Of a DNA stretch of 24,000 nucleotides, positions 14,707 through 15,252 are shown piece after piece; the first letter of the stretch is position 1; the number at the start of each line of letters is the position of its first letter. The position numbers and the translations under genes were made by a program. The DNA lies in contig NZ_JBHTCM010000010.1 in assembly GCF_042665545.1 (NCBI RefSeq), positions 323,672-347,671 of the forward strand, in the 5' to 3' direction. The stretch is from Rhodocista pekingensis (GTDB taxonomy: Bacteria > Pseudomonadota > Alphaproteobacteria > Azospirillales > Azospirillaceae). The notes under the pieces were generated by a model that was not told where the DNA came from, made no database searches, and saw only the letters and a list, made by a program, of their open reading frames with translations.

Positions 14707-15252
14707 TCAGCCTCCCCCCGGAGGCGGTGGGGGCGGAGGCGGAGGAGGAGGTGCCGGCGGTGGCGCCGGAGGTGGCGGCGGTGGCGGTGCGGGCGGCGGC
14801 GCCGGAGGTGGTGGCGGTGGCGGTGGCGGTGGCGGAGGCGGCGGAGTCGGCTGCGGGGTGGTGGGATTCAGGATCACGTTGTAGATCCGCTGCAACTGGT
14901 CGGCGGTCATCGCCAGGTTGCCCTGGTTCTGCTGCACCGCCTGCAACGCCTTCTCCGGATTCGTCTCGGCCAGCACGTTCATCGCCTTGGTGGCGATGGC
15001 GTTGTTGATCGTCAGCATCGTCTGCTGCTGCGCGACGATGTTCTGCATCGCCATGCCCAGGGCCTGGGCGAGGACGGTGTAGAGGGCCGAGGTCGCCTCC
15101 GCCGGCGCCGGCCCCAGCACCATGGCGTTCAGGGGGCTGAGCGGCGCGCCGTCCAGCGTGGTCTGTGTCTGGGCCTGGGCCTGGGGCTGCGGAGCCGGGG
15201 CGGCACCATAGCCGTAACCGTAGCCGGGAGGGTTCAAGGGTCCGTTTGCCAT
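14707..15252 (-). CDS. RebB-family (R-body) paralogue with low-complexity N-terminus and a 49-residue polyproline C-terminal tail
   Basis: The core LNAMVLGPAPAEATSALYTVLAQALGMAMQNIVAQQQTMLTINNAIATKAMNVL aligns with the upstream paralogues (APA..A..LY.V.AQ..G..MQN.VA.QQ). The N-terminus is GYGYGYG / PQPQAQAQ. The tail is P14-A-P3-A-P7-A-P3-A-P11-GGG-stop. AAGGAG lies 10 nt upstream of the ATG. Confidence 0.8.
   Translation of the reverse strand: MANGPLNPPGYGYGYGAAPAPQPQAQAQTQTTLDGAPLSPLNAMVLGPAPAEATSALYTVLAQALGMAMQNIVAQQQTMLTINNAIATKAMNVLAETNPEKALQAVQQNQGNLAMTADQLQRIYNVILNPTTPQPTPPPPPPPPPPPPPPAPPPAPPPPPPPAPPPAPPPPPPPPPPPGGG
14719..14865 (-). repeat. polyproline-coding tract (CCN runs; GGTGGC/GGCGGT hexamer microsatellite on the plus strand)
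   Basis: The plus strand reads cggaggcggtgggggcggaggcggaggaggagg ... ggtggtggcggtggcggtggcggtggcggaggcggcgg. In-frame short repeats encode 38 Pro in runs of up to 14. Confidence 0.9.

Follow-up and report, generated by a model that had tools for sequence, protein, structure and literature searches.

A RebB-family protein with a hypervariable polyproline tail, encoded last in a Rhodocista reb operon, as a putative accessory R-body subunit

We have analysed a 24,000-nt stretch of the Rhodocista pekingensis genome (the window), which carries an R-body (reb) operon whose last gene encodes a RebB-like protein with a long polyproline tail (hereafter tailed Reb). Eight genes with a Pfam RebB domain lie on the minus strand from position 18552 to 14707. 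The eighth and last of them is a 181-codon open reading frame (ORF) with an ATG start (14707-15252; this and all other features are on the minus strand unless marked +). A gap of 25 nt separates it from the stop codon of the reb gene before it, and a Shine-Dalgarno sequence, AAGGAG, was read 10 nt upstream of its ATG (15263-15268). The Pfam RebB profile matched residues 41-97 of the translated protein (profile positions 8-64 of 68) with a score of 45.8 bits (cut-off 24; E = 6.3e-12), which places tailed Reb in the RebB family (PF11747) by the Pfam gathering score. The gene is clustered with other reb genes and its orthologue is co-induced with them (see below); it is a genuine RebB-family gene within a reb operon. 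No NCBIfam model matched the protein, and PADLOC returned nothing relevant. A plus-strand ORF over the same region (14680-15417, +), with an Arg/Trp-rich product, was discarded as a by-product of the repeat.

The initial annotation, made from the DNA letters, had described the last gene of the array as a fusion of a RebB-like core and a polyproline tail, and the ORF, its translation and the Pfam match all agreed with this. The N-terminal region (residues 1-40, 15133-15252) is of low complexity and predicted to be disordered. It holds the GYGYGYG stretch (residues 10-16) and the PQ/AQ repeat after it that had been described at the outset, both of which were seen in the translation, and alleles differ in it at A25P and T29A. 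The GYGYGYG stretch (15205-15225) is worth recording in its own right, tyrosine being reportedly rare in Reb proteins. The RebB-like core, delimited by Pfam, alignments and AlphaFold2 (AF2), comprises residues 41-128 (14869-15132) with two predicted helices. A short linker, NPTTPQPT (residues 129-136, 14845-14868), connects it to a Pro/Ala tract (residues 137-178, 14719-14844) that is followed by a terminal GGG and the stop codon (14707-14718).

The C-terminus thus reads ...NPTTPQPT-P14-A-P3-A-P7-A-P3-A-P11-GGG-stop, exactly as first reported. The runs of 14, 3, 7, 3 and 11 prolines correspond to residues 137-150, 152-154, 156-162, 164-166 and 168-178, respectively, with a single alanine between successive runs. 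The tract is composed of 38 Pro and 4 Ala and bears no charge, and no charged residue is found anywhere beyond R122. Counted from P130 to P178, 41 of 49 residues are proline, which amounts to the proline-rich C-terminal extension that characterizes the Reb group S2 discussed below. AF2, run with the subfamily alignment described next, predicted helices at residues 50-97 and 99-128 and a non-helical tail. The predicted local distance difference test score (pLDDT) was 69-86 for the tail and below 50 for residues 1-49. No solved relative of the subfamily was found in the Protein Data Bank. The generic polyproline-II helix rises by ~0.31 nm per residue; if the tract adopted this conformation, residues 137-178 would span ~13 nm, and the arithmetic behind the 12-15 nm rod proposed initially was sound.

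A search with residues 1-136 retrieved 27 proteins, among them one near-identical allele and one distant member, P0017, which was excluded from the subfamily alignment (26 sequences). The 24 closest relatives were 131-155 residues long and 40-48% identical to the query. The alignment contained 30 invariant columns and the block LGPAP.EA...Y...A.A.G.AMQNIV.QQQT..TINNAIATKA.N.LA, whose invariant part MQNIV.QQQT..TINNAIATKA is carried by the R. pekingensis core. A C-terminal tail of 20-45 residues was present in all 24 closest relatives, and in most of them it was rich in Pro, Glu, Gly and Ala (for example PPPEPPPPQEP and PQPPPDHAPPQPPPAPAPP). The distant members P0017, P0027 and P0050 had very short tails. 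A GGGH motif recurs near the C-terminus of the distant relatives P0009, P0023 and P0024. The view that a Reb subunit with such a tail lacked any described precedent had to be given up: proline-rich C-terminal tails run through most of the close subfamily, and the S2 group has been described (PMC13430693). A recent domain fusion was likewise rejected, as the tail extends through the close subfamily.

In the four lineages examined (Rhodocista and the loci L006, L007 and L009), which have unrelated flanks, tailed Reb was the last reb gene in every case. The gene order in L006, L007 and L009 matched that of Rhodocista and comprised a divergent sigma factor gene, a weak RebB gene, a gene of ~180 aa, several RebB genes, the tailed Reb gene as the last of them and a gene for a ~90-aa HTH_Tnp_1 protein. 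L006 is an Acetobacteraceae metagenome-assembled genome, and it was the sole locus confirmed by a genome-collection scan with the subfamily alignment. A metagenome scan for close relatives found none, and hence yielded no further polyproline alleles. Taken as a group, these proteins appear to constitute a distinct and undescribed tailed subfamily, which always takes the last reb position, upstream of a conserved small helix-turn-helix (HTH) gene.

We have then compared tailed Reb with its own paralogues and with the defined Reb groups. The operon contains five main RebB genes (15278-17342), located at 16995-17342, 16609-16968, 16124-16447, 15645-15971 and 15278-15604, which encode proteins of 107-119 aa with Pfam scores of 78-102 bits. 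The protein of 16124-16447 is exactly identical to WP_012567175.1, known as rcRebE, which Dorr et al. 2026 used as the seed of their "group 5." Tailed Reb shares with the typical members of the family (RebA and RebB of Caedibacter taeniospiralis, rcRebE) the RebB domain, including the MQN..QQQ of "domain 3," and an operon with five typical paralogues. Its identity to its own paralogues is only 22-34%. The QITD signature of the N-terminal "domain 1," which according to Dorr et al. 2026 has conserved prolines on its flanks, is absent from tailed Reb, whereas the paralogue alignment showed QITD or LVTD, DITT and YISN in the other seven proteins. At this place the alignment of tailed Reb has a gap ahead of PLSPLNAMVLGPAPAEA; of domain 1, the protein keeps just the LG.AP.(Q/E)A end. 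Tailed Reb further has the 40-residue low-complexity N-terminus, and the 42-residue uncharged tract takes the place of the short C-terminal "domain 4," which is charged according to Dorr et al.

The survey of Dorr et al. 2026 includes a group, S2, with an extended proline-rich C-terminus (PMC13430693). Tailed Reb shares such an extension with this group, whose seed is htRebF of Hydrogenophaga taeniospiralis (WP_068173300.1, 184 aa). Compared by description, S2 proteins reportedly keep domain 1 and co-occur with group 1, whereas tailed Reb lacks QITD and resides in a cluster of group 5 type. Indeed, this cluster holds the group 5 seed itself, and the group 1 co-occurrence of S2 was not found for it; group 5 has no common co-occurrence with the other defined groups (PMC13430693). 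Two proteins of our set that fit the S2 description, P0068 and P0079 (QITD or QVTD plus a proline-rich tail), were no closer in score to the tailed subfamily than ordinary Reb proteins were, which suggests that such tails may have arisen more than once on RebB scaffolds.

The feature that is specific to Rhodocista is the homopolymeric nature of the tail. The RebB-like set comprised ~143 of the 168 proteins retrieved, after exclusion of ~25 housekeeping or cluster-neighbour proteins (such as dihydrofolate reductase, cystathionine gamma-synthase and the HTH protein). None of the 142 other RebB-like proteins contained a run of more than four prolines, a length that the Rhodocista allele alone exceeded. 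Tailed Reb has 11 units of three consecutive prolines (PPP) in 181 aa, far more than the 0.1-1 PPP units per 10,000 aa of bacterial proteomes (PMC4218817). The tail is no product of chance, its reading frame running on from the RebB domain and being retained in three independent alleles. A full-text literature search for "R-bodies" together with "polyproline" found no description of a homopolymeric Reb tail. In the Rhodocista lineage, the tail of the subfamily has turned into almost pure polyproline.

Length polymorphism between strains had been anticipated, together with a homologue search and a comparison of tail lengths as the way to find it, and both the polymorphism and a reshuffling of the tract were found. 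The R. pekingensis allele of the window (181 aa) ends in T-P14-A-P3-A-P7-A-P3-A-P11-GGG. The allele of a second strain, represented by five runs (L001-L005), is also 181 aa long and ends in T-P7-A-P10-S-P2-A-P4-A-P3-A-P11-GGG. That of Rhodospirillum centenum SW (also named Rhodocista centenaria), a close relative of R. pekingensis, is 189 aa long and ends in P4-A-P5-A-P5-A-P3-A-P2-A-P7-A-P3-A-P2-A-P13-GGG. All indels between the three alleles are in frame, the 189-aa length of SW resulting from a 24-nt indel, and the GGG-stop, as well as most of the ~14 codons before it, are identical in the three.

These differences were compared with those in the rest of the locus. Between the window and SW, mismatches amounted to 0-2.3% in reb2 to reb7 and to 3-7% in the flanking housekeeping genes, against 10.7% plus the 24-nt in-frame gap in the tail. 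Between the window and the second strain, the figures for reb2 to reb7 and the flanking genes were 0-0.6% and about 1%, respectively, and a 60-nt segment of the tract (codons 139-158, 14779-14838) accumulated 16 differences versus 8 in the preceding 402 nt. Hypervariability is therefore confined to the tract, in an operon that otherwise hardly varies. Among the 16 differences that separate the tails of these two 181-aa proteins, 12 leave the residue unchanged (binomial p = 8e-4 versus one third), and the remaining four interchange Pro and either Ala or Ser. As a separate observation, the 97.7-100% DNA identity of reb2 to reb7 (15278-18135) between R. pekingensis and SW (L011), with two genes at 100%, means either that the lineages have recently exchanged the island or that constraint on it is unusually strong.

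A tract of this kind raises the question of whether it is real. If the gene were a pseudogene, or if the tail resulted from a frameshift or from a repeat collapsed or expanded in assembly, no such protein would be made, and two observations go in this direction: half of the short-read operon contigs (5 of 10, L013-L017) end inside or just before the tract, which is thus hard to assemble, and an exact look-up in a large protein collection returned neither the window protein nor the SW protein. Against this, an in-frame tail with the same GGG-stop was found in the R. pekingensis contig, in the finished SW chromosome and in the second strain, where five separate runs gave the same assembly, and the orthologue is transcribed within its operon. 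With three in-frame alleles and a transcribed orthologue, we regard an artefact or pseudogene as very improbable and have rejected it. The breaks at the tract do mean that tail lengths taken from single short-read assemblies need confirmation. The tail sequence was identical, without any length change, in the five independent assemblies of the second strain.

The coding DNA had been labelled a GGTGGC/GGCGGT microsatellite prone to in-frame slippage. The predicted length variation was borne out, as described above, and the label was not: Tandem Repeats Finder detected only 68-85% matches at periods from 6 to 36, with rare synonymous codons interrupting the repeat. The longest perfect repeat was 24 nt, (CCGCCA)4 at 14812-14835, which lies within the hypervariable codons, the only part of the tract to hold one; the longest C run was 5. 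A contingency locus that switches the protein on and off was rejected on these grounds. The strains do show length polymorphism, as expected of such loci, whereas the long perfect frame-shifting repeat is lacking, no out-of-frame allele was found and the five assemblies were identical.

The proline codons of the tail differed markedly from those of 12 other genes of the window. The counts in the tail and in these genes were 19 and 81 for CCG, 9 and 4 for CCA, 8 and 5 for CCT, and 2 and 45 for CCC, respectively. The rare CCA and CCT codons therefore make up 45% of the proline codons of the tail and 7% of those of the 12 genes (Fisher p = 1.8e-7). Such a mix would be expected from selection against perfect (CCG)n or poly-C DNA, or from a prolyl-tRNA demand spread over isoacceptors. 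Either explanation implies that the tract is maintained as coding sequence, and it appears to be stabilized by its mixed synonymous codons.

These data bear on the idea that the tail is a neutral runaway repeat, in which a disordered tail, or none, would suffice and the polyproline, produced by CCN-codon slippage in Rhodocista at a genomic GC content of 70%, would be tolerated without any new function. Tail sequence and length are indeed poorly conserved in the subfamily, some members being nearly tailless, the tract is the only hypervariable spot of the operon, and a neighbouring collagen-repeat gene (described below) also varies in length, suggestive of a regional instability of repeats. However, all three alleles have stayed in frame, end in a long run of prolines and share an identical GGG-stop. 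The enrichment of CCA/CCT and avoidance of CCC (p = 1.8e-7) suggest selection on the DNA or on tRNA demand, and in an operon so strongly induced one would expect a costly series of ribosome-stalling codons to be lost if it served no purpose. On balance, we consider neutrality unlikely.

The expression of the gene could be followed in R. centenum SW, whose production of R-bodies was documented by Favinger in 1989, as cited in PMC3583457 (see also PMC4340629). The SW orthologue of tailed Reb, ACI99387 (189 aa, annotated "R body protein"), was assigned to RC1_1993 through the chain ACI99383 = folA = RC1_1989, ACI99384 = RC1_1990 and ACI99386 = RC1_1992. In published RNA sequencing (RNA-seq) of cyst development, the log2 fold changes of RC1_1993 at four time points were 4.00, 4.17, 3.85 and 1.81 (PMC4340629, supplement). 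All genes from RC1_1990 to RC1_2001 rise together in encystment, including the HTH gene RC1_1992 (log2 3.8) and the collagen-EndoU gene RC1_1990 (log2 about 4) (PMC4340629). In a cgrA deletion, RC1_1993 falls by a log2 of -8.2 and is listed in an operon headed by RC1_2000. CgrA is a cGMP-responsive regulator with a chromatin immunoprecipitation peak in the RC1_2000/RC1_2001 intergenic region; it directly activates the RC1_2001 sigma factor, whose disruption was reported to abolish encystment (PMC4681086). On the published RNA-seq of the SW orthologue, the tailed Reb gene belongs to an operon under developmental control and is transcribed with it. At the RNA level, lack of expression, which the initial annotation had named as a finding that would speak against its view, is thus not observed.

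We propose that tailed Reb serves R-bodies as an accessory or minor subunit, a reading to which we give about an even chance of being right. The conserved helical core would dock on or into the ribbon that the five main Reb paralogues build. Presumably unable to form a helix or to join the lattice, the tail would stand out as a stiff, uncharged polyproline-II rod of ~13 nm. It could be a spacer or bristle at the face or edge of the ribbon, where it may set or limit the packing of layers or mark the ribbon end. Selection would then act on tail composition, approximate length and the GGG tip, rather than on the exact sequence.

The accessory-subunit reading is made plausible by findings in other R-bodies. 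Purified R-bodies of Pseudomonas aeruginosa PA14 contain RapA, a "secondary" Reb that bears a proline-rich extension, and R-body actuation is decided by ordered lamellar packing, and not merely by the shape of the roll. RapA (paRebB, group S4) is, like tailed Reb, encoded in a reb cluster, one that is also controlled by a dedicated sigma factor and a transcription factor. The likeness has its limits: RapA carries its extension, which also abounds in charged residues, at the N-terminus, resembles Reb proteins only very weakly in sequence and comes from a group 2 cluster. A low abundance of the tailed subunit is also predicted. Ribosomes stall at consecutive prolines, and the relief by elongation factor P (EF-P) is only partial (PMC5811046). 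The runs of 14, 11 and 7 prolines contain the EF-P motif of at least three consecutive prolines, and the 11 PPP units, combined with the last position in the operon, would make translation slow and EF-P dependent.

Several points weigh against the accessory-subunit reading. Tailed Reb is known here as a gene, with a transcript of its SW orthologue, and its presence in R-bodies is inferred; the AF2 model was weak overall, with a predicted template modelling score (pTM) of 0.25. The spacer role is suggested by composition, and the position on the ribbon is not specified by the sequence. The short-tailed P0017, P0027 and P0050 indicate that a long tail is not essential to the function of the core. 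Slippage of codon units could by itself account for the mostly synonymous differences in the tail, with no need to invoke selection for proline. Finally, a core able to dock is no proof of incorporation, since assembly of the type 51 R-body depends on RebC and yet RebC is not incorporated.

This last point leads to a different role, that of an assembly-pathway factor. The core would bind the main Reb subunits transiently, ordering the ribbons or blocking off-pathway aggregation, and the tail would keep the factor soluble and outside the lattice. Correct type 51 rolls require RebC, although its incorporation is not detectable, and contain RebD as a minor constituent only; Dorr et al. suggest RebC-like regulatory roles for "secondary" Reb proteins (PMC13430693). 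The lack of the QITD of the main paralogues and the last place in the operon would also suit such a factor. RebC and RebD are small reb-operon proteins that influence assembly and yet are not among the main constituents of the ribbon; neither has a proline-rich tail, and their relation to tailed Reb is a functional analogy only. In contrast, RapA, the sole "secondary" Reb with proteomics, occurs in purified R-bodies at levels similar to those of the structural subunits. Transient and permanent binding are not told apart by sequence. We hold a pure assembly role to be unlikely, if still credible.

The rest of the locus was also examined. The first two genes of the operon, reb1 (131 aa, 18157-18552) and reb2 (189 aa, 17566-18135), gave weak RebB matches in Pfam (30.7 and 30.3 bits, respectively). 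The weak RebB N-terminus of reb2 is followed by 2.7 copies of an 11-aa AAQGNGASQVA-like repeat (17729-17817, 33-nt period), and its position is taken by the ~180-aa counterpart in the other lineages. Downstream of tailed Reb lies the gene of an 88-aa HTH_Tnp_1 protein annotated as a "transposase" (14161-14427), identified by Pfam and synteny. It resembles OrfA of the IS3 family, and its homologues (47-62% identity) lie directly downstream of tailed Reb in four lineages with unrelated flanks. This conservation ruled out an insertion-sequence remnant, and the protein is probably a conserved cluster member, a domesticated regulator of the reb cluster.

On the other side, an extracytoplasmic function (ECF)-type sigma factor, the orthologue of RC1_2001, is encoded divergently (19107-20051, +) and adjoins the cluster in all four lineages. 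It has a ~90-residue Ala/Pro-rich C-terminal extension past region 4, which includes PPPPPP, and its alignment with the SW orthologue contains 69 gap positions. The region between reb1 and the sigma factor gene (18553-19106, ~550 bp) has 53% GC, compared with ~70% in the window, and contains a match, with 2 mismatches, to the predicted CgrA-binding sequence published for the RC1_2000/RC1_2001 intergenic region of R. centenum (18704-18719, +), 0.1 matches being expected by chance. Promoter and terminator scans gave hit counts at background level, and no minus-strand terminator was found after the tailed Reb gene.

A collagen-repeat protein with an EndoU ribonuclease domain, the orthologue of RC1_1990, is encoded at 12941-13939 (Pfam). 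The gene stands beside the cluster in Rhodocista only, being absent at L006, L007 and L009, and its collagen repeat comprises 32, 29 and 16 G-X-Y triplets in the three strains. No signal peptide was evident in the protein. The reb cluster and the sigma, HTH and collagen-EndoU genes lie together between thyA and folA, and the collagen-EndoU protein is a candidate R-body-associated toxin. In P. aeruginosa PA14, cleavage of host rRNA depends on R-bodies.

Next to folA, 2.5 kb from the tailed Reb gene, a 213-aa protein (11516-12157) named "elongation factor P hydroxylase" in R. centenum scored 22.8 bits with Pfam EpmC, just under the cut-off of 23.8, and matched Escherichia coli YfcM (3WTR, 4PDN) weakly around an HE..HW motif. 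Just past thyA, at the other end of the reb island, a two-piece alphaproteobacterial transfer-messenger RNA (tmRNA) gene (21099-21456, +, 252 bits), the only hit of an Rfam scan of the window, is directly followed by sspB, which encodes the ssrA-tag adaptor (21493-21993, +). A functional link of the EpmC-like gene, tmRNA or sspB to tailed Reb was rejected: all sit in the conserved flanks beyond the island, none accompanies the other clusters, and their proximity is probably a coincidence.

Long polyproline-II stretches are found in the Pro-rich spacer of TonB, the FH1 region of formins, Listeria ActA and Burkholderia BimA, where they act as stiff spacers or as docking sites for profilin or EVH1 domains. 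Charged or aromatic flanks define the partners of these tracts, whereas that of tailed Reb is pure Pro/Ala with a GGG tip, on a putative subunit of a cytoplasmic polymer. Profilin ligands are uninterrupted proline runs of about 6-10 residues, a length that the runs of 14 and 11 prolines would satisfy. The tail might accordingly be directed at eukaryotes: after ingestion and unrolling of the R-body, it would bind profilin, SH3, WW or EVH1 domains of a predator. Polyproline stretches are listed as ligands of all four (PMC4218817), R-bodies act on eukaryotic cells in three systems, and the operon is induced in non-motile cysts, for which an anti-predation defence was proposed (PMC4340629). However, residues 129-181 contain no Arg, Lys, Tyr or Phe and thus none of the flanks of SH3 (PxxP with Arg/Lys), WW (PPxY) or EVH1 (FPPPP) ligands. 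The tails of the relatives are acidic, non-homopolymeric and devoid of such motifs, the internal sequence of the tract varies between close strains, and Rhodocista has no known eukaryotic target. A eukaryotic ligand is, in our judgement, improbable.

A broader version would make the rod a docking element, either for profilin or other proline-binding proteins of the predator once the phagosome is pierced, or for cargo such as the collagen-EndoU ribonuclease. The latter would be the obvious candidate, as it is encoded nearby, is co-induced and also has polyproline-II geometry. We likewise attach a low probability to docking of either kind. If true, cargo tethering would be the first molecular link between R-bodies and a toxin, echoing the R-body-dependent rRNA cleavage of P. 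aeruginosa.

Parts of this picture were already known: the R-body annotation dates from the R. centenum genome, and proline-rich tails on Reb proteins have been described. What appears to be undescribed is the near-homopolymeric, uncharged ~13 nm tract, together with its hypervariability and its scrambled codons. R-bodies are among the largest known bacterial protein actuators, and how accessory Reb proteins shape the ribbon, how its layers are packed and released and how toxicity is delivered are the matters at issue. R. centenum is a genetically tractable R-body maker, in which a natural accessory Reb with a defined, rigid and uncharged rod could serve as a test case for what Reb C-terminal extensions do, and the polyproline rod may offer a display handle for engineered R-bodies. 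As an unusually long bacterial polyproline tract in an operon induced about 16-fold (log2 ≈ 4), the tail could show how EF-P limits translation in development, and it appears to be an example of a repeat stabilized by mixed synonymous codons.

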